Shown here: positions 387 through 56,484 of the stretch, piece by piece
Layout: each line of letters starts with the position of its first letter
Numbering within the stretch: position 1 is the stretch's first letter
Origin: Desulfobacteraceae bacterium RAAP-1
GTDB taxonomy: Bacteria; Desulfobacterota; Desulfobacteria; Desulfobacterales; Desulfatirhabdiaceae
Direction: 5' to 3'
Assembly: GCA_001443525.1 (NCBI GenBank)
Contig: LKPX01000006.1
Coordinates: 47 to 64,046 of the forward strand
Length of the DNA stretch: 64,000 bases
Position numbers and translations under genes: made by a program
Notes under the pieces: generated by a model
Databases searched by the model: none
Seen by the model: the letters and a program-made list of their open reading frames with translations, nothing else
What the model was told of the DNA's origin: nothing

Positions 387-402
387 TTTTTACGAAGCCG
401 TC
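387..402. repeat. Solo end fragment (TTTTACGAAGCCGTC) of the GACGGCTTCGTAAAA palindromic element family
   Basis: Exact reverse complement of the 15-nt terminal repeat seen at 18665, 21789, 30153 and 56463. Confidence 0.6.
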
Positions 403-6016: not shown

Positions 6017-8220
6017 TTTGCGTCCTCCACCGTAATCGCCTCAAAATTCCGCATGATCGCCGAACGCATATCCTCGATCTGCTCCGGACTGCGGATAATG
6101 CGCGGGGTGATCATGACAACCAGCTCCGTCCGGTTTGTCGTTTTGGCGGTGCTTCTGAAGAGATTCCCCAGAATCGGAATATCGCCCAGCCACGGAATCT
6201 TTGTGACACCGTCCGTATTGTTCTCCTTGATCAATCCTCCCAGCATCACCGTCTGCCCATCGGCGGCCACCACTTCCGTGGTCAGATTGCGGTTTGAAAT
6301 CATCGGGGAATCAATGCCGGAGGTGGTATTGGGCGTGGCGTCACTGACGCCCTGCGTCAACTGCAGGGTCAGAACCCCCCGGGAATGCACCGTCGGTGTA
6401 ACATTGAGGGTGATACCGGTTGTCATATACTGATATGAGCGCACCAGTCCGGTCGTCGTGGTGGTGGTCGTGGCGGTGGCCACATCACCGGTCACCACCG
6501 GTACCTGGGTGCCGACCACGATGCTGGCGGATTTTCCGTCCCGAACCGTGATGCGCGGGCTGGAGAGTATTTTAAGCTTGCTGTCCGTCGCCAGCGCACT
6601 GATCATCAAACTGAATGACTTGGAGGAATTCAGCACCGAATAATCAAGGCCGCCTCCAAAATTTTTGGTTGAACCGTTCAGTATGTTCAATGTGCCGGTC
6701 AGATCTCCCCCGTGCTCGATGTACCATTCCAGCCCGTACTTGAGATTGCCCGACAGCGTCACCTCCGCCACCGTCGCCTCCAGCAGCACCTGGGCAGGCA
6801 TCACATCGATCTGTTTGAGCAGCGACTCGATGATTCTATAATACACCGGCGTGGTGTAAATAACCAGGGCGTTGCGATTGTCATCCACCGTCACCGAAAC
6901 GTGATCCACAATACCGGCCATATTGGACGAAATGGCGCTGCTCCCGGTTCCGGAGTTGGCGGACGTTGCGTCGGAAGTCTTTTCAGCAGATGTGGACGGC
7001 AAAACAGTGGTCTGCCCCATTTGCAGCCCCTGCGCTGTTTTGACGGCTGACTTTGTGTTTTTTCCCGAAGAGGTGTCCGCCTTGGTTTTGGGAGTAGAAA
7101 TCCCCATAATGTTCTGGAGGGTTTCACACAAATCCTTCGCCCGGCTGTTTTCGGGGAAATAGATAAAAAACCGATTATCCACCTTGTCTTCCGGAATATC
7201 CAGCGTTTTAATCCAGTATGTCAGACGATTCAGCCATTCTTTCTGGGCGGAAAACGCCAGAAGGATCCGCCACCTGTCAATCGGAATCAGCCGCAGCCCC
7301 CCGTCTGCTCCGCCTGCCACCGGAATGCCTTCCTGTGTCAGAATTTCTTTAAGCTTTGGCACCAGCTCTTTGGTATCCCAGTATGCTACTTTGAACATAA
7401 CTCCATATTTGCCGCGCATGGCCGGCCGGTCCATCGCACCGATAAGCTGCAGCGCCTGCAGCACACTTTCCCGCGCGCCCTGAACCACCAGAACATTTTC
7501 GTTCTGCATGGCATACACCGTCAACCCCGGCGTGTTCAAGAGCATCTGCACCAGTGTGCCGGCCATGGCATATCGAATCGGCACGAGCTGACGAATCTGC
7601 CCCGAAGTATCCGGAACATCCGTATAAGCGGAACCGATACCGATTTCAACACCTTGCTGCGGTGTGCCGGGTACAATATAATATACGCCGCCTTTTTCCC
7701 GGATAACCGTATTGTACCCGGCCAGAATATCCGACACAATGCCATAGAGTTTCTGCTTGGTCACCCGGTCTTTCAGATTGAGACTCAACTTCTCCTGGCC
7801 CGGCACCTTGCTGTCCAGCACATAATTGACGTTCAGCAGATCATTAAATACATAATGTATGAAATCTGACAGTTGAATAGTATCCACCGACACCGTCACT
7901 TCTTCGGTCGGGCTGAAACGGTTTTTTAAATCCGGCAGCTTTCTGATGCCCGAATTGTCGGAAATCGGCGGAATCAGCGTCGTGTGGGTTCCCGCCTCCG
8001 GGAGATTCGCCCCCTGCAACCCCGATAGGGGGCCGGACGGCGTCCCGGTCACTTCTTCTTCGGCCTTAACCGGCTTGTTATAGACATCCAGCTTGATTTT
8101 TTCCTTCGGCGGTATGGCGCAGGAAACGGTTATCAATACCAAACTCAACAGCATCGGAAGCCGGGCAGCCCCCCATGCCAATTTCAACGCACTTACAGCA
8201 CGATACATCGCTTTTGTCAT
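6013..8220 (-). CDS. gspD: Secretin (GspD/PilQ family outer-membrane channel)
   Basis: The C-terminal secretin domain is unmistakable: ILSSPRITVRDGKSASIVVGTQVPVVTG...ITLNVTPTV...NRNLTTEVVAADGQTVMLGGLI...IPWLGDIPILGNLFRS...ELVVMITPRII. The N-terminal signal ends in VSC, a possible lipobox. Confidence 0.92.
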   Translation of the reverse strand: MTKAMYRAVSALKLAWGAARLPMLLSLVLITVSCAIPPKEKIKLDVYNKPVKAEEEVTGTPSGPLSGLQGANLPEAGTHTTLIPPISDNSGIRKLPDLKNRFSPTEEVTVSVDTIQLSDFIHYVFNDLLNVNYVLDSKVPGQEKLSLNLKDRVTKQKLYGIVSDILAGYNTVIREKGGVYYIVPGTPQQGVEIGIGSAYTDVPDTSGQIRQLVPIRYAMAGTLVQMLLNTPGLTVYAMQNENVLVVQGARESVLQALQLIGAMDRPAMRGKYGVMFKVAYWDTKELVPKLKEILTQEGIPVAGGADGGLRLIPIDRWRILLAFSAQKEWLNRLTYWIKTLDIPEDKVDNRFFIYFPENSRAKDLCETLQNIMGISTPKTKADTSSGKNTKSAVKTAQGLQMGQTTVLPSTSAEKTSDATSANSGTGSSAISSNMAGIVDHVSVTVDDNRNALVIYTTPVYYRIIESLLKQIDVMPAQVLLEATVAEVTLSGNLKYGLEWYIEHGGDLTGTLNILNGSTKNFGGGLDYSVLNSSKSFSLMISALATDSKLKILSSPRITVRDGKSASIVVGTQVPVVTGDVATATTTTTTTGLVRSYQYMTTGITLNVTPTVHSRGVLTLQLTQGVSDATPNTTSGIDSPMISNRNLTTEVVAADGQTVMLGGLIKENNTDGVTKIPWLGDIPILGNLFRSTAKTTNRTELVVMITPRIIRSPEQIEDMRSAIMRNFEAITVEDAK

Positions 8221-8897: not shown

Positions 8898-9021
8898 GAC
8901 GACTTCGTAAAAAGCCCGCATGCTGCGTTGCGCTGCATCCTTCGTCGTTGCGGCGCACCCAAAGTACGCCTCACTCCTCAGGCTTTGCGCGCCTTGCCTG
9001 CGAACTTTTTACAAAGTCGTC
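8898..9021. mobile_element. MITE/REP-like palindromic element, full-length copy 1 (most diverged)
   Basis: GACGACTTCGTAAAAAGCCCGCATGCTGCGTTGCGC...GCGCGCCTTGCCTGCGAACTTTTTACAAAGTCGTC. It has terminal inverted repeats and aligns along its whole length to the copies at 18665 and 21789. It abuts the stop codon of the 9022-9945 gene. Confidence 0.8.
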
Positions 9022-9945
9022 TCAAAAATCAACTTTTTTATTTAAATCGGGATGTGAAATCTGAAACGTCTTGTAACGCGAAATCCGGGAATGCCGCAAA
9101 TCAGCATACGCCTCCACCTCCGGCGCATAGTGATATCCCACAATAAAAGGAACGATGTCACCCTTCAATACCCCTTGCAGCCGATGGAGCATTTTGTCGA
9201 ACCTGTCAAAATCTTTTTTCCCGGGCTGCGCCTTGCACTCACCGATCAAAAAAACCGGCTGGCTGTCTTTGACGCCTTCCACATAAAGATTGACCTCATC
9301 GTACTTGCCGTCAGGATACATTACGTTGCGCCTGTCCACGCTGAGCACTTCGATGCCGTATTGCCGCAATACAAAATTCCGGAGATCCGGCATAATCCTG
9401 TCCTCAATCCCATATCCCACCGACATGGAAAGCCCGCCCAGCTGCACGGCCATATTTTTCTGATTCCCGGCAAGCGCCCGCACCGATTTTTCCGTCCGCT
9501 CCTGCGCCTCCGCCAGCCTTTCAAGACGGGCATCCGTGCGCTTCTGCGCCCCTGTCAGCTCCTTCTGTGCTTCGGTCAGCTCTGCAACGCGCTGCTCTGT
9601 ACGCTCCTGCGCTTCGGTCAGCTTCTTCTGCGCCTCCGTGAGTTCACCCACACGCTGCTCTGTTCGATCCTGCGCCTCGGTCAGTTTCTTCTGCGCCTCC
9701 GTCAGTTCACGCATACGCTGCTCTGTCCGATCTTGCGCCTCGGTCAGCTTCTCGAGGCAGGCATCCGTCCGATCCTGAACCTCAACGGACCGGCGCAGCA
9801 CATCTTTCATCTCATTGAAATCCTTGCGATCCAAAGTAATAATCCGTGTCTTTACTTCAACTTCATTCATCAAGTACAGAAACAGACTTTTCAGTTTTGG
9901 ATCCACTTCGTCCACTTGTCGAATAAAATCAGCACTGAGAGTCAT
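9022..9945 (-). CDS. Coiled-coil repeat protein with a C-terminal PD-(D/E)xK nuclease-like domain (DUF3782-like architecture)
   Basis: N-terminal LTEAQDRTEQRxxELTEAQKK repeats. The C-terminal region GIEDRI...YDEVNLYVEG...FLIGECKAQ fits the E...D...ExK restriction-endonuclease-fold signature. There is no signal peptide. Confidence 0.65.
   Translation of the reverse strand: MTLSADFIRQVDEVDPKLKSLFLYLMNEVEVKTRIITLDRKDFNEMKDVLRRSVEVQDRTDACLEKLTEAQDRTEQRMRELTEAQKKLTEAQDRTEQRVGELTEAQKKLTEAQERTEQRVAELTEAQKELTGAQKRTDARLERLAEAQERTEKSVRALAGNQKNMAVQLGGLSMSVGYGIEDRIMPDLRNFVLRQYGIEVLSVDRRNVMYPDGKYDEVNLYVEGVKDSQPVFLIGECKAQPGKKDFDRFDKMLHRLQGVLKGDIVPFIVGYHYAPEVEAYADLRHSRISRYKTFQISHPDLNKKVDF
9559..9747 (-). 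repeat. 3 x 63-bp in-frame tandem repeat (21-aa unit LTEAQDRTEQRMRELTEAQKK), with degenerate copies on both flanks
   Basis: Protein residues 67-129 are three near-identical 21-aa units. The DNA repeat is visible across 9540-9760. Confidence 0.85.
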
Positions 9946-18600: not shown

Positions 18601-18664
18601 TATCGATTTTGATCTGCAGATCCGCCATCATCATGGGCGTTGTCAAACAGATCGAATCAATTTT

Positions 18665-18788
18665 GACGGCTTCGTAAAAAGTCCGCATGCTGCGTTGCGC
18701 CGCATCCTTCGTCATTGCAGCGTACCACAAGTACGCTTCATTCCTCAGGATTTGCGCGCCTTGCCTGCGAACATTTTACAAAGCCGTC
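18665..18788. mobile_element. MITE/REP-like palindromic element, full-length copy 2
   Basis: GACGGCTTCGTAAAAAGTCCGCATGCTGCG...AGCGTACcacaaGTACGCT...CATTTTACAAAGCCGTC. It has 15-nt terminal inverted repeats, a central 7-bp stem, and lies in the divergent intergenic region. Confidence 0.85.
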
Positions 18789-18896
18789 TAAAAGCTGATT
18801 TTTGAAAAAACCGTTAATTTAATACCTTAGCGGAGTCCTGAAAGCGGTCATATTTTTATTGACAGATTCCGCCGATCAGGAATAAGACATCACGCG

Positions 18897-21758
18897 ATGT
18901 CGCTGACAACACCAGGGCATCGTACTGTTTGCCGTATCAAACAAGAAGGAACTCGCTGTTTGCTCACAATGATACCCCGCGACGCGCCAATGTCCATGCT
19001 GTTTACAGCAGATCCGGAGACGGCGGTTATCGTGCAGGAAAAATTGAGAAATCATTTCCCTCCGGTTTCTGAAAAAGAACTCGCGGTAATTGTCGATGAG
19101 ACCATCTGGGGATTGTCTCAGGAAACGGCCCTGGGCCATTCCGTTGCCGCCGGCCTTATCGAACTTGCCGGGAAGGTATCCGGCGATTTTCTTGAAATAT
19201 ACCGCGCCCGTGTCCATGAAGCCGGATCCCAAAGCGCATCTCTGGGCAGGATGATGGCGATCCATCTGGTCTCCGTTATCCGAACGGAAGACCGGAAGCT
19301 GATCGGGCAATTCATGGACACAACGAATGCCCTCCTGAAAATCGGCTCATATACCCTGCAAAGCCCGCTTGAAACCCTGTCCGCATTTCTGGAAACCGGG
19401 GATACGACGTCGGCTGCAGCGTTCATGAAGCTGCTGGCCCAGACCCTTTCTCCGGCGCTTTCCTACAATCAGTGCAAGCATCTCTGTCATATCCTTTCCA
19501 AAGCCGCGGCCTCGTTTCCTTTACCCCGAAGGTGTTTCCAGATTGAACAACTGACGCGGGTCGCCGTCACAGATCCGGCGCTGGTCGATATCTTCCTGGA
19601 CGGCATGGAGCGGGGGCTTGGCTTTTTAAACGCCAACGGCCTGAATGCCTTTGTAACCGACGGGTTAAACCGGTACCAGCAAAACCATTCTCTGGGAATG
19701 CAGTTTCTGTCGCTGGAATCCAGGCGCGCCCGGGATGCTGCTGACAGCCTTCAGACGGCTGTTGTCTTTTCACAGATGCGTCAGGAACTGAACCGTTACC
19801 TTCAGGCCAGAACCGGCGGCGGACTTTCCGTATCCTCCATGTCCGAATCGCCGCCTGCGGACAACCTTTTTTCCGGCACGGCGCCTCTGGTGTACTCACG
19901 GGGAAACCGCATCTGCCTGCCCGATGAACTGGAGCGTTTCAGCACAAAAATCGAAAATCGCTTTCTGTACAAATGCCTGACCCGGTTTGAAGCCTGCCAC
20001 CACGAATTCGGCAGCTATGATTTCGATATTGAAAAAGCGTTCGATATTTTTCAGAAAGATCGACAAAACGATATCACCGGGAAAAATACGGACAATGATT
20101 CTGAGCAGGCCGCCCGCGCACTTCCGGAATCCGGAACGGATCCGGATATCGATCGGTTTTACAAAATGTTCCCCGATTCCGGACTCGCTGCGGATTTATG
20201 GACCCTTTTTGAGGAAGGCCGGGTGCGGGTTATTTTGAAAAAACAATATCCCGGCATTGTTCATCAGGTACTCCCATGGCTCCTGAGAGAAGCGGCAACC
20301 CTGTATCCAGGGGGCGCCGGCCCGGTCGAATCGCTGTATCTGAAAATCGCTCTGGATGCCTCCGTAAAGACTCCCGGCTGTGAAGCTGTTATACAGGCAT
20401 TTGATCGAGCGATACATCCGCAATCCCGTGTGGAAGACAGCGCCGTGCTGGTCCTGAAAACGTACGCGGATATCGCCGCGCTTCTGAATACTGCTTCCGG
20501 ACAGACGTATCGCCGTCTGAAAACCCCTTTTGGCATCCGTCCCCGGTTCGATATGGCGCTGGACGCAGCGACTGAGTCCAGAACAATGGCTCTGAAAAAA
20601 AAGCTGTCCCAAAAAGGAATCCGCGTCTATACCTCTGATGTCCGCAAGCTGCTGAAGCAGCATGATGGCGACATCCGGCAAGAAGACATCCTCGATCTGA
20701 TTCGAAATTCAGGTCGTCCGGATGCCGCCGCAACTTCGGAAAGCGCCGTGGTGGATCTGTCCGGACTGGATTTGTCGGATGTGACCGCCGCATCAGGCGC
20801 CGCCATGCCGGATGCAGCGCCAGCCGCCTGGTATCGGGAATGGGACTGTATTCATGGAGATTATCTGGATCACTATACACGGGTGGCGGATCGCTGCGTG
20901 GAAGGCGCAGACACCCATTTTTACGAAAACGTTCTTCAGCAATACAAAGAGCTGGTCAGCCAGATCCGGTATGCTTTTGAGTTGATGAAGCCGGAGGGTC
21001 TGAAGATACTTCGCAATTGGACCGAAGGCGACGAACTGGACTACCGGGCGATGCTCGACTTTGTGCTGGACCGTAAATCCGGTCATATTCCGTCCGACCG
21101 GCTGTATATCAAGCGGCTCAAACAGGACCGGGACGTGGCCGCCCTGCTTCTCATGGACGTTTCCCGTTCCACCGGCAATTCTGTGGCCGGCAATTCTGTG
21201 GATGGATCGCTGCCGGATGGAGAAGAAACGGTGCTGCGTATCGAAAAAGAGGCGGCAACGCTGTTCTGTGAAGCCCTCCATATTCTCGGAGACCACTTTG
21301 CAGTGGCGGGTTTTTCCGGAAACGGACGCCTGTCTGTGGATTATTATCACATCAAGGATTTTGACGAATCTCTGAACGAAACGGTGCGCCGGCGCATCAG
21401 CGGACTGACGCCGCAGCGAAGCACCCGAATGGGCGCCGCCATCCGTCACGCCACTGCCTGTCTTAACGCCATGACGTCGAAAGTCAAACTCCTGATTCTG
21501 CTGGGAGACGGATTTCCCAATGATCTGGAGTACAAACAGGGCTACGCCATCGGAGATACCCGAAAAGCCATTGCCGAAGCCCTATCCCGCCATATCCACA
21601 CTTACGCCATCACCGTCAACATGGCCTATGACGCGCGTCTGGATGATCTTTATGGAAATGTCCATCACAGCGTACTCTCTGATGTCCGGGAACTGCCCTC
21701 CAGACTCTTGAGCATCTATAGCTCACTGACCCGAACGCATTCCCACGGAGCCGCCTGA
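18897..21758 (+). CDS. Large vWA-domain protein, NorD/CbbO-like (MoxR-ATPase adaptor family)
   Basis: C-terminal vWA domain with the MIDAS motif LLLMDVSRSTGN, then LLILLGDGFPND...GDTRKAI. The central region (ICLPDELERF...NRFLYKCLTRFEACHHEFGSYDF; DLWTLFEEGRVRVILKKQYPG) is typical of NorD/CbbO. The start is uncertain, with several in-frame ATGs between 18897 and 18998 and no clear RBS. Confidence 0.75.
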   Translation: MSLTTPGHRTVCRIKQEGTRCLLTMIPRDAPMSMLFTADPETAVIVQEKLRNHFPPVSEKELAVIVDETIWGLSQETALGHSVAAGLIELAGKVSGDFLEIYRARVHEAGSQSASLGRMMAIHLVSVIRTEDRKLIGQFMDTTNALLKIGSYTLQSPLETLSAFLETGDTTSAAAFMKLLAQTLSPALSYNQCKHLCHILSKAAASFPLPRRCFQIEQLTRVAVTDPALVDIFLDGMERGLGFLNANGLNAFVTDGLNRYQQNHSLGMQFLSLESRRARDAADSLQTAVVFSQMRQELNRYLQARTGGGLSVSSMSESPPADNLFSGTAPLVYSRGNRICLPDELERFSTKIENRFLYKCLTRFEACHHEFGSYDFDIEKAFDIFQKDRQNDITGKNTDNDSEQAARALPESGTDPDIDRFYKMFPDSGLAADLWTLFEEGRVRVILKKQYPGIVHQVLPWLLREAATLYPGGAGPVESLYLKIALDASVKTPGCEAVIQAFDRAIHPQSRVEDSAVLVLKTYADIAALLNTASGQTYRRLKTPFGIRPRFDMALDAATESRTMALKKKLSQKGIRVYTSDVRKLLKQHDGDIRQEDILDLIRNSGRPDAAATSESAVVDLSGLDLSDVTAASGAAMPDAAPAAWYREWDCIHGDYLDHYTRVADRCVEGADTHFYENVLQQYKELVSQIRYAFELMKPEGLKILRNWTEGDELDYRAMLDFVLDRKSGHIPSDRLYIKRLKQDRDVAALLLMDVSRSTGNSVAGNSVDGSLPDGEETVLRIEKEAATLFCEALHILGDHFAVAGFSGNGRLSVDYYHIKDFDESLNETVRRRISGLTPQRSTRMGAAIRHATACLNAMTSKVKLLILLGDGFPNDLEYKQGYAIGDTRKAIAEALSRHIHTYAITVNMAYDARLDDLYGNVHHSVLSDVRELPSRLLSIYSSLTRTHSHGAA

Positions 21759-21788
21759 TCCGAAAAGCCGTCTGAAAAATCGACTCTT

Positions 21789-21913
21789 GACGGCTTCGTA
21801 AAAGGTCCGCATGCTGCGTTGCGCCGCATCCTTCGTCATTGCAGCGTACCACAAGTACGCTTCATTCCCTGCGGATTTGCGCGCCTTGCCTGCGAACATT
21901 TTACGAAGTCGTC
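21789..21913. mobile_element. MITE/REP-like palindromic element, full-length copy 3 (same orientation as copy 2)
   Basis: Differs from copy 2 by a handful of substitutions and one indel, by my alignment. It begins 31 nt after the vWA gene stop. Confidence 0.85.
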
Positions 21914-22183
21914 ACTCTTTACGAAACCACAAAAAAATCTTGCCGAAAAGCGAAAATCCATATATGGGCTGAAAAGGCCGATATGAGAACAGTATCCGGA
22001 TTTTTTTGTCTGACGACCACCGGGCGTCCGCATCCGAGCCATTCCCGAAAGAGGCTCCCTTGCAGCAATATCCAGACAAATCGCCCGGTTCCGAAATTCA
22101 ATATGACAAGCCCATGCCTGAACAGAGCGCACCAGACGATGTGAATTTCAGCATTTATGAAGGGTTATCCCAAAGGAGGCTTT

Positions 22184-30152: not shown

Positions 30153-30167
30153 GACGGCTTCGTAAAA
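30153..30167. repeat. Solo end (GACGGCTTCGTAAAA) of the palindromic element family
   Basis: Exact 15-nt match to the left end of copies 2 and 3. No partner end lies nearby. Confidence 0.6.
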
Positions 30168-34407: not shown

Positions 34408-35276
34408 AATTATTTCAGTTCCTGATCTCCGGGTTGACCACCGGAAGTACCTATGCACTGATCGCCATAGGATTCTCCATCATCCACAATGCCACCGGAA
34501 TCGTCAATTTCGCTCAGGGAGAATTCGTCATGCTGGGCGGTATGTTCATGATCACATTTTTCACTGTTCTGAAGATTCCCATGGCGTCTGCTTTTTGTCT
34601 GACAGTAATCAGTGTTGCCATCGTCGGACTGATACTGGAAAAAGGCCCGTTGGAGCAGGCCAGATCCAAAGAAATCCTCAATCTGGTCATGATCACCGTT
34701 GCTGCATCCATCGTCATCAAGGGCCTGACCATGATACTCTGGGGCAAAAATTCCATGACGATTCCCGCCATTTCGGGTGAATCGCCCCTTTTGATATGGA
34801 AGGCCGCCATTATGCCTCAGAGCCTGTGGATATTCGGCGTTACTCTTGGCGCCGTAGCGATGCTCAATGTCTTTTTTCGATGTACCCGGACAGGCAAGGC
34901 GATACGAGCGGTTTCCGCCAACCGCCGATATGCGGTGCTGGCCGGCATCCCGGTAAATCGGATGCTGGCGTTTTCTTTCTGTCTGAGCGCTGCACTGGGA
35001 GCCGTTGCGGGCATTCTTCTCACCCCGATGACCACCATTTCCTATGATGCCGGCGTAATGCTGGGGTTGAAAGGATTTTCCGCGGCCATCCTCGGCGGCT
35101 ATGGTTCCATGACGGGAGCTGTGATCGGAGGTATTCTTCTGGGCGTCATGGAATCGCTGGGTGCTGGTTTTATCTCCTCTGAATATAAAGATGTCCTGGC
35201 TTTTATGATCCTGTTGATGGTTCTTTTTATCAAGCCGTCCGGCCTGCTGGGCGCCGGTATGCTCAAACGGGTTTAG
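34392..35276 (+). CDS. Branched-chain/hydrophobic amino acid ABC transporter permease (LivH family)
   Basis: LISGLTTGSTYALIAIGFSIIHNATGIVNFAQGEFVMLG, with the typical C-terminal IKPSGLLG. Confidence 0.88.
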   Translation: MPIFLKLFQFLISGLTTGSTYALIAIGFSIIHNATGIVNFAQGEFVMLGGMFMITFFTVLKIPMASAFCLTVISVAIVGLILEKGPLEQARSKEILNLVMITVAASIVIKGLTMILWGKNSMTIPAISGESPLLIWKAAIMPQSLWIFGVTLGAVAMLNVFFRCTRTGKAIRAVSANRRYAVLAGIPVNRMLAFSFCLSAALGAVAGILLTPMTTISYDAGVMLGLKGFSAAILGGYGSMTGAVIGGILLGVMESLGAGFISSEYKDVLAFMILLMVLFIKPSGLLGAGMLKRV

Positions 35277-39768: not shown

Positions 39769-41574
39769 ATGTCAGTGAAAAAACGCAGTGAGATGGCGGT
39801 CCGATATGAGTTTAAATCATACCGGGATATCACGCCGATGCACGTTTCCACAGGCAATATGCTTTACAACAAGACCGGAAGCTGGCGTTTTATCAAACCT
39901 GTTTATGAAGACAAGACGCCGGCCTGCCAGAATGCCTGTCCCGCAGGAAACGATATCGAAGGCTGGCTCAAACTGCTTGGCAAGCGGGAATTTGAAAAAG
40001 CCTATTGGCACTTGAAACGCGAAGAACCGTTTCCGGCCATCCTCGGCCGGGTCTGCTTCAGATTCTGCGAAGCCGCCTGCAACCGGGCCGGTCTGGACAG
40101 CAGCATCGGCATCCGTGAACTGGAGCGCTTTATGGGCGATCAGGCAGTTTCCGACACGTCTTATCCGGATGTATTGCCGGATAACGGAAAACGCCTGGCG
40201 GTCATCGGCTCCGGCCCCGCCGGGATGTCCGCCGCCTACTTCGCCAGATATCTCGGATTCGCTGTAACCATTTTCGATAAGGAAGACCTGCCGGGAGGTA
40301 TTCTCCGGCTGGGCATTCCGGCATACCGCCTGCCGCGTGAAGTGGTTGCCGCGGAATTTGACGGGCTTGTCCGCATGGGTGTCGAGATGAAACTGCATAC
40401 GGAAATCGGCCGCGATATCTCTCTGGAAGACATCGCCTCGACCTTCGACTATGTGTTTCTGGCTACCGGCGCACACCGGAGTCTTTCCCTGGATATGGCT
40501 GAGAGCAGCGGCTGTTGCCGGATCATGAGCGGATTATCCCTGCTCCAGCGGGTGGCGCGGGGAGAATCTCCCGAACTGGGCCAGCGGGTTGTTGTCATCG
40601 GCGGCGGCAATACGGCTGTTGACGCCGCCCGCACCGCTATCCGCCTGGGGTCGCAGGTAACCGTCCTGTACCGGCGCTCCGAATCTGAAATGCCGGCTCA
40701 TCCCGAAGATGTCCGGGAAGCATGCGAAGAAGGCGTCGTATTCCGTTTTCTGGCGGCGCCTGAGCATATCTGCCTGCTTCCGGATGCAACCATTGAAAAA
40801 CTGGTGTGCTGTGAAATGACGCCAGGACCTCCGGATGCGACAGGACGCTGCACGCCTGTCCGAAAAGAGGGAATGACATTTGACGTTCCCGCCGATACGC
40901 TGGTGACAGCCATCGGAGAAGCTCCGGCACTGGATTATCTGCAACCGTTTATGCCGGATACCGCCGGCAGATTCATTGAAACGCAGACCGATTTATCCGT
41001 TGCCTGCCAGATTCCCGGAAAAGCGAAGGTTTTTGCCGGCGGAGACACAGGCCAGACGCCGCGAACGGTCGTCCATGCCGTGGCATCCGGTAAACGGGCG
41101 GCTATTGCCATGGACTGCGATCGAAAGGGCCTCGACACCGCCGATATTTTTCGCCAAATTCAGGTGGGCGATGGCAATGCGGTCAGTTTTTCGCGTTATA
41201 TGAACTGGGCGCCGGTCAATCCCGTACCGAGAAACGATCAAAGCGTGGTGGACCGTCAGAAGATTGTTTATGATTATTTCATCAGGGCGCCTGGAATTCG
41301 AAAGGAAATTCAATCCGGCGAACTGAGAAAAACCGGCTTTGCGCCCTACCATCCATCCCTGACGCCGGATGAAGCACTGACCGAAGCCGCACGCTGCATG
41401 CACTGCGGACGGTGTACGGAATGCGACAACTGTCTGATTTTCTGCCCGGATGTCTCAATTCTCGATCAGACGCGTGAATCCTTCGGATACGCCATTGATT
41501 ACGACTACTGCAAGGGATGCGGTATCTGCTTTACGGAATGTCCACGCAATGCCATCAGCATGATCGAAGAGTGA
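39769..41574 (+). CDS. Fusion protein: PorD-like delta subunit ends flanking a GltD/NfnB-like FAD/NAD(P)H oxidoreductase module
   Basis: N-terminal TGSWRFIKPVYEDKTPACQNACPAGNDI. GltD-type region FPAILGRVCFRFCEAACNR and dinucleotide folds VIGSGPAGMSAA / VIGGGNTAVDAA. C-terminal 2x[4Fe-4S] motif CMHCGRCTECDNCLIFCP...CKGCGICFTECP. Confidence 0.8.
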   Translation: MSVKKRSEMAVRYEFKSYRDITPMHVSTGNMLYNKTGSWRFIKPVYEDKTPACQNACPAGNDIEGWLKLLGKREFEKAYWHLKREEPFPAILGRVCFRFCEAACNRAGLDSSIGIRELERFMGDQAVSDTSYPDVLPDNGKRLAVIGSGPAGMSAAYFARYLGFAVTIFDKEDLPGGILRLGIPAYRLPREVVAAEFDGLVRMGVEMKLHTEIGRDISLEDIASTFDYVFLATGAHRSLSLDMAESSGCCRIMSGLSLLQRVARGESPELGQRVVVIGGGNTAVDAARTAIRLGSQVTVLYRRSESEMPAHPEDVREACEEGVVFRFLAAPEHICLLPDATIEKLVCCEMTPGPPDATGRCTPVRKEGMTFDVPADTLVTAIGEAPALDYLQPFMPDTAGRFIETQTDLSVACQIPGKAKVFAGGDTGQTPRTVVHAVASGKRAAIAMDCDRKGLDTADIFRQIQVGDGNAVSFSRYMNWAPVNPVPRNDQSVVDRQKIVYDYFIRAPGIRKEIQSGELRKTGFAPYHPSLTPDEALTEAARCMHCGRCTECDNCLIFCPDVSILDQTRESFGYAIDYDYCKGCGICFTECPRNAISMIEE

Positions 41575-41631
41575 CAGCTTCGTCAAATGCCTGCATGCTG
41601 CGTTGCGCTGCAACCATTTGACGAAGCTGTC
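41573..41631. repeat. 59-bp perfect-stem hairpin, short member of the palindromic element family
   Basis: GACAGCTTCGTCAAATG (41573-41589) and CATTTGACGAAGCTGTC (41615-41631) are perfect 17-nt inverted repeats. The loop GCATGCTGCGTTGCGC matches the interior of the 124-bp copies. The element overlaps the upstream TGA stop. Confidence 0.85.
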
Positions 41632-46911: not shown

Positions 46912-46948
46912 AACGAATTCCCAACTGTTAAAAAACGTTTATTAAATT

Positions 46949-46963
46949 GACGGCTTCATAAAA
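46949..46963. repeat. Solo end (GACGGCTTCATAAAA, 1 mismatch) of the palindromic element family
   Basis: 14 of 15 nt match the element terminus. It lies in an intergenic region. Confidence 0.45.
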
Positions 46964-47004
46964 AATCCACATGACGGCGTCTGCACCGCAACAGCACAGG
47001 AACA

Positions 47005-49825: not shown

Positions 49826-49840
49826 GACGGCTTCGTAAAC
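49826..49840. repeat. Solo end (GACGGCTTCGTAAAC) of the palindromic element family
   Basis: 14 of 15 nt match. It lies 5 nt after the livK stop. Confidence 0.5.
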
Positions 49841-56462: not shown

Positions 56463-56484
56463 GACGGCTTCGTAAAAAGTCGTC
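56463..56484. repeat. Left-end fragment of the palindromic element family (GACGGCTTCGTAAAAAGTCGTC)
   Basis: The first 19 nt are identical to the left end of copy 2. Confidence 0.55.

Follow-up and report, generated by a model that had tools for sequence, protein, structure and literature searches.

Short palindromic repeats of 124-151 bp are scattered through the genome of Desulfobacteraceae bacterium RAAP-1, and several of them lie in the 64,000-nucleotide stretch of contig LKPX01000006.1 analysed here (the window). These repeats very probably constitute a non-autonomous DNA transposon, a MITE (miniature inverted-repeat transposable element), for which an IS1182-like insertion sequence would supply the DDE transposase in trans. 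A preliminary description of the window had proposed a family of MITE-like or REP-like (repetitive extragenic palindromic) units of 124 bp. The MITE reading is borne out by terminal inverted repeats, target-site duplications and a partner insertion sequence in related genomes, from which we infer mobilization in trans.

The boundaries of the element were set by aligning ∼190 genomic copies with 50 nt of flanking sequence. In this alignment, the left boundary is sharp and the right side of most copies runs past the 124-bp unit; the full unit measures 151 bp. It begins on the left with the terminal repeat L (GACGRCTTCGTAAAAAGTC), which is followed by a hairpin core, by R1 as the inner of two right repeats (...ACTTTTTACRAAGYCGTC), by an 11-nt spacer with the consensus YGAAAWTCGAC and by R2 as the outer one (TTTTTACGARGGCATC, or GATGCCCTCGTAAAAAGTC when read inward). 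L, R1 and R2 all match GAYGNCYTCGTAAAAAGTY and form the terminal inverted repeats of ∼19 nt. Such a three-repeat architecture is unusual, and it is shared by diverged copies from congeneric species and by copies in metagenome-assembled genomes (MAGs) of other orders. Because the genomic alignment gives the 151-bp layout, the sequence AAAATCGAYTTTT, previously taken for an extra flank of several copies, corresponds to the element's own spacer and the start of R2. A second form of 124 bp extends from L to R1 and has its own target-site duplication. The element has a G+C content of ∼55% and is non-coding: one frame is open through it, but the ATG of this frame is missing in other subfamilies.

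The full unit contains an imperfect palindrome of ∼90 nt with the apex GCRGCGTAC-loop-GTACGC (GCAGCGTAC-loop-GTACGC). The central AGCGTAC/GTACGCT stem and the hairpin formed by the whole unit, both noted previously, are real. The second copy of the window (copy 2) folds into one long hairpin on the plus strand (minimum free energy -52.2 kcal/mol, z = -6.1), and its minus strand reaches -66.2 kcal/mol (z = -8.0). The more stable RNA strand is the one reading from R2 to L in 145 of 157 copies, an asymmetry that can be inherited from a master copy.

Evidence of movement comes from the flanks of the element. Among 82 long copies, the left and right flanks agree only in a 6-bp register (0.89, 0.78, 0.72, 0.72, 0.80 and 0.83 per position, versus ∼0.25 in other registers). 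For end-to-end copies, all six positions are identical in 50 of 113 cases and five of the six in another 22, the corresponding numbers being 1 and 11 when the right flanks are shuffled. The target is composed of A (95%), A (69%), N, N, T (62%) and T (92%), with a weaker C before and G after. In other MAGs, 10 of 19 copies have a perfect duplication, and a few copies elsewhere have a duplication of 7 bp. Copies that end at R1 carry their own duplication directly after R1, indicating that R1 and R2 have both served as right end. Within the window, ACTCTT stands on either side of the third copy (copy 3; 21783-21788 and 21914-21919), a perfect duplication of 6 bp. When this copy and one ACTCTT are removed, the joined flanks give a continuous R1-spacer-R2 sequence, and >15 other loci match across the junction, which makes them a paralogous empty site.

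These 6-bp duplications were absent from the preliminary description, which had read the left end as TTGACGG or TGACGG and likened it to a -35 hexamer. The string is present, but its leading T or TT comes from the duplicated AANNTT target, of which it forms the last bases, and lies outside the element. The -35-like TTGACG is a by-product of target TT and element GAC, and it faces inward; simple scans of copies 2 and 3 revealed neither a promoter-like nor an intrinsic-terminator-like site inside them.

To characterize the candidate partner, a sample of 151 genomes from the order was used. The motif GAYGNNYTCGYAAAAAGT was found in 103 of them, with up to 834 occurrences per genome, while the reversed control gave 0-1 per strand per genome. 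In genome G026, many contigs start ∼230 nt away from an occurrence of the motif, as is typical of an insertion sequence present in several copies. This multi-copy insertion sequence (L049:3305-5182) is 1878 bp long, has the ends GATGCACTCGCAAAAAGTC and GATGGACTCGCAAAAAAAC and encodes a 575-aa transposase in a single open reading frame (ORF) with the domains DUF772, DDE_Tnp_1 and DDE_Tnp_1_6. The best family for this transposase is IS1182 (NF033551, E 7e-44, 150 bits, profile positions 28-486 of 488). Homologues (E <= 1e-30) are present in 21 of the 151 genomes, almost all with GATGNNNTCGTAAAAAGTC at both ends, and the transposases of these ∼1.9-kb partner insertion sequences range from 540 to 600 aa. 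Thus the insertion sequence with the same termini that had been envisaged does exist in relatives of the same order, including two members in the same genus: one in G074 with a 601-aa ORF (62% identity) and one in G070 with the end GATGAATTCGTAAAAAGTC. The MITE resembles the insertion sequences at the termini only, with up to 19/20 identical positions, so that its interior is unrelated to them.

The flanks of the insertion sequences carry the same type of duplication. A perfect 6-bp duplication of the form A(A/G)NNTT borders 8 of the 14 comparable complete copies: AATTTT (L064), AAGTTT (L065), AACTTT (L067), AAAATT (L085), AGTCTT (L069), AATCTT (L070), AACCTT (L072) and AATATT (L073). At the L071 copy, an 8-bp sequence, AAAGAAAA, is common to both sides in another register.

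In the RAAP-1 genome (G000) itself, the only trace of such a transposase is an N-terminal remnant of 35-48 aa on contig C100 (83-226), which adjoins a MITE and is matched by 9 of 15 query transposases (E down to 5e-6). The copies in this genome are probably stranded fossils. Just upstream of the remnant lies an 81-nt repeat (CACAAATCAGAATTGGATTCGCTGCTTTCCCTAAAATTCCAGC...; C100:1-81) that is also found at C10:12761-12841, C92:51-131, C120:39241-39313 and C110:42930-42998; this repeat may have been the leader of the insertion sequence that was lost, or it may represent a further small repeat.

In the mechanism that we propose, the MITE would be moved in trans by a DDE transposase encoded on an IS1182-like insertion sequence of 1.9 kb with GATGNNNTCGTAAAAAGTC ends. 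The transposase would cut with a 6-bp stagger at AANNTT, more often at C/AANNTT/G, and the staggered cut would produce the 6-bp (occasionally 7-bp) duplication at MITEs and insertion sequences alike. Either R1 or R2 could be used as right end, giving rise to the 124-bp and 151-bp forms. Side effects of insertion would include long hairpins in transcripts, a ready-made TGA at the junction (target T followed by element GA), changes to the 3' ends of genes and breaks in assemblies.

We also observed tandem elements that have one AANNTT in common, where a newcomer has inserted into the hexamer duplicated by an earlier copy; the element ends (...C/AANNTT/G...) re-form the extended preferred target. 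Such an arrangement concerns 4 of the 153 complete copies in the genome (C124:28677, C93:5905, C24:60236 and C114:19355). Other cases are L155, L167 and L134, and at L064, L072, L068 and L063 an insertion sequence and a MITE adjoin each other in this way.

The window itself contains 14 matches to GACGGCTTCGTAAAA with <=2 mismatches, versus 0.10 expected from dinucleotide-preserving shuffles. They include both ends of the three full copies, both ends of a 59-bp form and the solo ends; another match, at 35225, falls within a gene and appears fortuitous. The previously reported full copies (8898-9021, 18665-18788 and 21789-21913) and 59-bp form (41573-41631) have the sequences described. The solo ends are likewise present, but the one at 388-402 belongs to another MITE family with a shared terminal repeat. 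The elements of the window are the following:

8898..9048, plus strand: copy 1, long form; L..R1 at 8898-9021, then the spacer and a degenerate R2 (TCAAAAATCAAC TTTTTTATTTAAATC)
18659..18821, plus strand: copy 2 with its duplication; element at 18665-18815, 151 bp, degenerate R2 TTTTTGAAAAAACCGTT
21783..21919, plus strand: copy 3, short L..R1 form with its duplication; element at 21789-21913, 125 bp
21765..21930, plus strand: older solo right end broken by copy 3; R1 fragment AAGCCGTC, spacer TGAAAAATCGAC..., R2 ...TACGAAACCAC
41573..41631, plus strand: 59-bp internally deleted derivative; L, 20 nt of left arm, R1, then the spacer-like TAAAATCGA
388..402, minus strand: terminal repeat of a different (third) MITE family with the same end; interior GTCTAAATTTGAATTTTTGCATCATATAAAC..., extending toward lower coordinates
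30153..30167, plus strand: solo left terminal repeat, intergenic
46947..46990, plus strand: truncated left end, repeat and ∼25 nt of left arm, 84% identity to copy 2, intergenic
49826..49840, plus strand: solo left terminal repeat within a 33-nt intergenic gap
56463..56484, plus strand: solo left terminal repeat (GACGGCTTCGTAAAAAGTCGTC)

Copy 1, located between two minus-strand genes, has ∼89% identity to copy 2 and no recognizable target-site duplication, and it is older. The contacts with stop codons reported for two copies are real. The ORF at 9022-9945 on the minus strand terminates at 9022, within the copy 1 spacer, and its last 9 codons are therefore element sequence. The gene at 39769-41574 ends with a TGA made of target T and the first two element bases, GA. 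Copy 2 is flanked by AATTTT (18659-18664) and AATTTA (18816-18821). A gene for a NorD/CbbO-like vWA protein (18897-21758) is flanked by copies 2 and 3, both in the same orientation; in five congeners the 3' region of this gene is present and the downstream element is absent. The duplications of the two copies differ (AATTTT for copy 2, ACTCTT for copy 3); they represent two independent insertions and not a composite transposon.

A profile search of the genome (4.09 Mb, 50% G+C, a draft of 193 contigs, 98.8% complete) gave 415 non-overlapping loci, which add up to 48 kb or 1.17% of the genome: 169 extend from L to R2, 79 from L to R1, 54 are partial copies of >=90 nt and 113 are shorter pieces. 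The expectation of a very abundant, dispersed and autonomous repeat unit therefore holds genome-wide. When the 248 full or near-full copies were placed on a crude ORF map, 241 fell outside the ORFs. The copies lie in gaps between tandem (123), divergent (46) and convergent (40) genes, approximately in proportion to the available intergenic length. Relative to co-directional genes, we noted a moderate orientation bias, the L-to-R2 direction being with the genes in 77 cases and against them in 46 in this genome (20:11 in other MAGs). Of the 386 contig ends, 66 fall within copies. The copies have a mean pairwise identity of 86%, are 91% identical to the consensus and include no identical pairs, which indicates that the amplification is old. 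Mismatches are evenly distributed along the element (core 9.1%, left arm 9.5%, R1 8.8%); the core decays as fast as the arms within the genome, and individual copies are thus not under purifying selection. Most copies would be selectively neutral passengers.

The family extends far beyond this genome. By BLAST, the 124-bp unit was found in all 15 congeners searched and in three other genera of the family. A 23-nt word of the core has matches in more than 106 contigs, the labels among the matches listed being Desulfobacteraceae, Desulfosarcina, Desulfatirhabdium, Desulfocapsa, Syntrophus, Syntrophaceae and Smithellaceae. Full copies were also seen in one MAG labelled Nitrospirae (L137) and one labelled Dehalococcoidales (L133), either by horizontal transfer or because the contigs are mis-binned. 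Among 301 genomes drawn evenly from the phylum, a 78-nt core (...GCATCCTTCGTCRTTGCRGCGTAC-loop-GTACGCCTCAYTCCTCAGGATTTGCGCGCC...) is present with 83-97% identity in 86 genomes and in 53 of 201 genera. The half of the core that was not used for selection is conserved to the same degree as the terminal repeats, while the adjoining arms are variable and the apical loop is free. Double changes occur in the stem at pairs 21-104 (GC in 43, AT in 25), 25-100 (GC in 57, TA in 10) and 50-77 (AT in 39, GC in 24).

Core and ends can be dissociated in both directions. Five copies (L138, L159, L110, L096 and L170) join the core to a different terminal repeat, CAGGCTGYTGAAAAAC, with no clear duplication, which implies either that MITE lineages have swapped ends or that the element co-evolved with another transposase. 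Conversely, at least six unrelated cores were seen among MITEs picked by the terminal repeat alone in the order's other families, most of these MITEs having matching 6-bp duplications; the core is therefore not required for mobilization. Over the order as a whole, the terminal-repeat motif accompanies at least seven unrelated cores. Two additional families with the same terminal repeat were seen in the RAAP-1 genome. Family B, of ∼100 bp and with an A+T-rich core (GTCGGTTTTAGCCTATTTTTACAACAATAACATCTTGAATTTATTGG...), has ∼16 loci (e.g. C132:29604-29704, C134:26538-26638 and C84:263-363), and another example is L001:1571-1660. The third family, with the interior GTCYRAATTTGAATTTTTGYATCATATAAAYTCAAT..., is found at 300-402 of the window (C140:∼350-448) and at C166:∼6450-6552.

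Conservation of the core across the phylum, set against its neutral decay within the genome, points to selection on an actively transposing lineage or to repeated horizontal spread. That the 78-nt hairpin core is a selected functional module and not filler is a possibility that we hold only tentatively, and it is rather unlikely on balance. If true, the core could be a cis feature that lets this MITE lineage outcompete others, for instance through end pairing, as a site for a host factor or the transposase, or by protection from defence systems; alternatively, it could be an RNA element that is beneficial at first insertion.

Several observations weigh against an IS1182-like transposase moving neutral passengers. 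Six of the 14 comparable insertion-sequence copies have no matching flanks. The NF033551 scores of four representatives (150-170 bits) are below the curated cut-off of 270 bits, and the nearest annotated plasmid relatives, labelled 'IS1182 family transposase', have ∼25% identity, so that the IS1182 label is approximate. No intact partner was found in the RAAP-1 genome, a 193-contig assembly in which contig C107 (1291 bases) reads as N throughout. Its length is in the size range of an insertion-sequence fragment; given this contig and the fragmented assembly, the interpretations of the copies as stranded and as still mobile both rest on incomplete data. Furthermore, DNA comparison with 15 congeners yielded no exact orthologous empty site: the congeners are only ∼75-82% identical, their intergenic DNA is too diverged, and only gene bodies align. 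Finally, a purely neutral passenger model does not account for the phylum-wide conservation of the core.

Other explanations account less well for the data. The element is palindromic, intergenic and very abundant, as would be REP sequences or bacterial interspersed mosaic elements (BIMEs) spread by a REP-associated tyrosine transposase (RAYT) of the HUH/Y1 type, the REP-like alternative of the preliminary description. However, a search for Y1_Tnp (PF01797) gave no match in this 98.8% complete genome, while control genomes were positive. REP/RAYT units are palindromes of 20-40 nt without target duplications, and HUH enzymes are not known to produce such duplications, whereas the present units measure 124-151 bp, have 19-nt terminal inverted repeats and 6-bp target-site duplications, and end identically to DDE insertion sequences. 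A REP/BIME origin is thus extremely improbable. It is also quite unlikely that the MITE is mobilized by another insertion-sequence family of this lineage, namely ISL3, ISNCY_1, IS5 or the IS1380-like element on contigs C71 and C97. Ends of the GG/GA...TTCG.AAAA type are common in several insertion-sequence families, a 25-aa ISL3 fragment adjoins a family B MITE end in C129, and 11 of 23 family genomes contain remnants of ISNCY_1. Nevertheless, the ISL3 copies of the order and genus lack the MITE ends: the terminal repeat was found near none of them, except one at a contig edge (L033) that faces away from the gene, and ISL3 ends in the order read GGTTCTTC.... Neither the ISNCY_1 copies nor C71/C97 have the terminal repeat in their vicinity, and the TGACGG strings of the latter are oriented the wrong way. 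The same ends, the 6-bp duplication and the AANNTT target come together only in the IS1182-like group.

A third explanation considers the hairpin primarily as a functional RNA or regulatory element kept by the host (stabilizer, processing site, attenuator or small RNA), its mobility being secondary. The strong folds (z of -6 to -8), the greater stability of one strand in 145 of 157 copies, the phylum-wide core with its free loop and double stem changes, and the orientation bias (77:46 in the genome, 20:11 in other MAGs) would fit such a role. On the other hand, Rfam gave no match at the gathering score over the window and none for copy 2 even at E <= 10. The copies occur in both orientations and in all intergenic types at approximately background proportions, their core decays like the arms within the genome (9.1% versus 9.5%), and no promoter-like or terminator-like site was seen in the scans. 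Strand asymmetry and much of the covariation can also be inherited from a few master copies. We consider a primary host function improbable, and mobilization of the MITE by the IS1182-like transposase remains the preferred explanation.

Several other candidates were examined and set aside. The intervals between inverted pairs of terminal repeats 0.2-5 kb apart in the genome hold ordinary host genes and no transposase. Nothing resembling the core was found beyond the termini in 20 insertion-sequence loci, which argues against the core being a remnant of an insertion-sequence interior. The solo GATGGCTTCGTAAAAAGT ends in G061 and G070 are diverged MITEs and not ends of insertion sequences. In G054, two identical ends (GATGGACTCGTAAAAAGTCGGGGACTCTCTC...) in inverted orientation lie 5.1 kb apart (L020, G054:C1:232188-237306), but the genes between them are HdrA-like host genes and the locus is no insertion sequence; it could reflect an inversion between MITE copies or a split element.

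Other mobile elements were noted along the way. Each of the family's four genera has ISNCY_1-type transposase genes (G000:C79:81-1178, and L036-L048 in 10 further genomes); these are mostly fragments or genes with stop codons, and ISNCY_1 is a decaying insertion-sequence family there. The transposase of ∼600 aa split between C71:1-474 (minus strand) and C97:1-1446 (plus strand), which scores 61 bits with NF033539 (cut-off 180), belongs to an unclassified DDE insertion sequence that is distantly IS1380/IS4-like. Further insertion-sequence-like pieces are on C99 (IS256-like by eye), C80 (IS110-like by eye) and C98 (an NF041680 fragment).

The partner insertion sequences resemble the IS1182 family in their single-ORF DDE transposase with DUF772 and DDE_Tnp_1/DDE_Tnp_1_6, which NF033551 aligns end to end, and in their size of ∼1.9 kb, terminal inverted repeats of 16-20 nt, short duplication and preference for a palindromic target. 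The IS1182 family is heterogeneous, and some of its members target palindromes (PMC5678879). ISPse1 of Paracoccus generates 4-bp repeats (PMC3281130), and IS1272 of staphylococci replaces stem-loops (PMC5678879). In contrast, the partner described here has a duplication of 6 (sometimes 7) bp and NF033551 scores below the cut-off. The ISDol1 group (ISNCY) of ISfinder, first found in a Desulfobacterales species, has 6-7-bp repeats and lengths of 1.6-1.9 kb; the partner may belong to exactly this group. ISDol1 has been described as a subgroup of ISNCY (PMC8147514).

The MITE itself is reminiscent of the ERIC (IRU) and Correia (NEMIS) elements, which are likewise imperfect palindromes of ∼120-160 bp with terminal inverted repeats, intergenic, present in hundreds of copies and found in long and internally deleted forms; like ERIC, it is conserved across genera. 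ERIC and Correia elements are co-transcribed with neighbouring genes, and effects at the RNA level are documented. There is no sequence relationship with either, and the 6-bp AANNTT duplication, the candidate partner and the three terminal repeats set the present family apart; Correia elements duplicate TA, and no clear partner insertion sequence is known for ERIC. In published summaries, the MITE named Chunjie in Geobacter uraniireducens Rf4 (Chen et al. 2008) is A+T-rich, 178-235 bp long, with 21-bp terminal repeats and 9-bp direct repeats (PMC3184786, PMC10969869). It is, according to these summaries, also a 'deltaproteobacterium' MITE with very stable hairpins, located in operons and with size variants. 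Compared by description, the present element differs in its 124-151 bp, its ∼55% G+C and its 6-bp duplications; with size, duplication length and composition all different, the two are not one family. We found no description of the present element in the literature searched. It is a MITE family of a known kind, ordinary apart from its unusually conserved hairpin core.

Taken as proposed here, these repeats would connect a very widespread set of MITE families with a single branch of IS1182-like transposases that is poorly classified and leaves a 6-bp AANNTT footprint, and RAAP-1 would represent a case of MITEs persisting beyond their insertion sequence. The family accounts for much of the fragmentation of this assembly and of related ones, and it is worth masking and annotating in the genomes of sulfate reducers and syntrophs. 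It makes or rewrites the 3' ends of genes and puts long hairpins inside operons. If the conservation of the core reflects a function, the family would be a tractable example of how selection acts on the inner part of a MITE.

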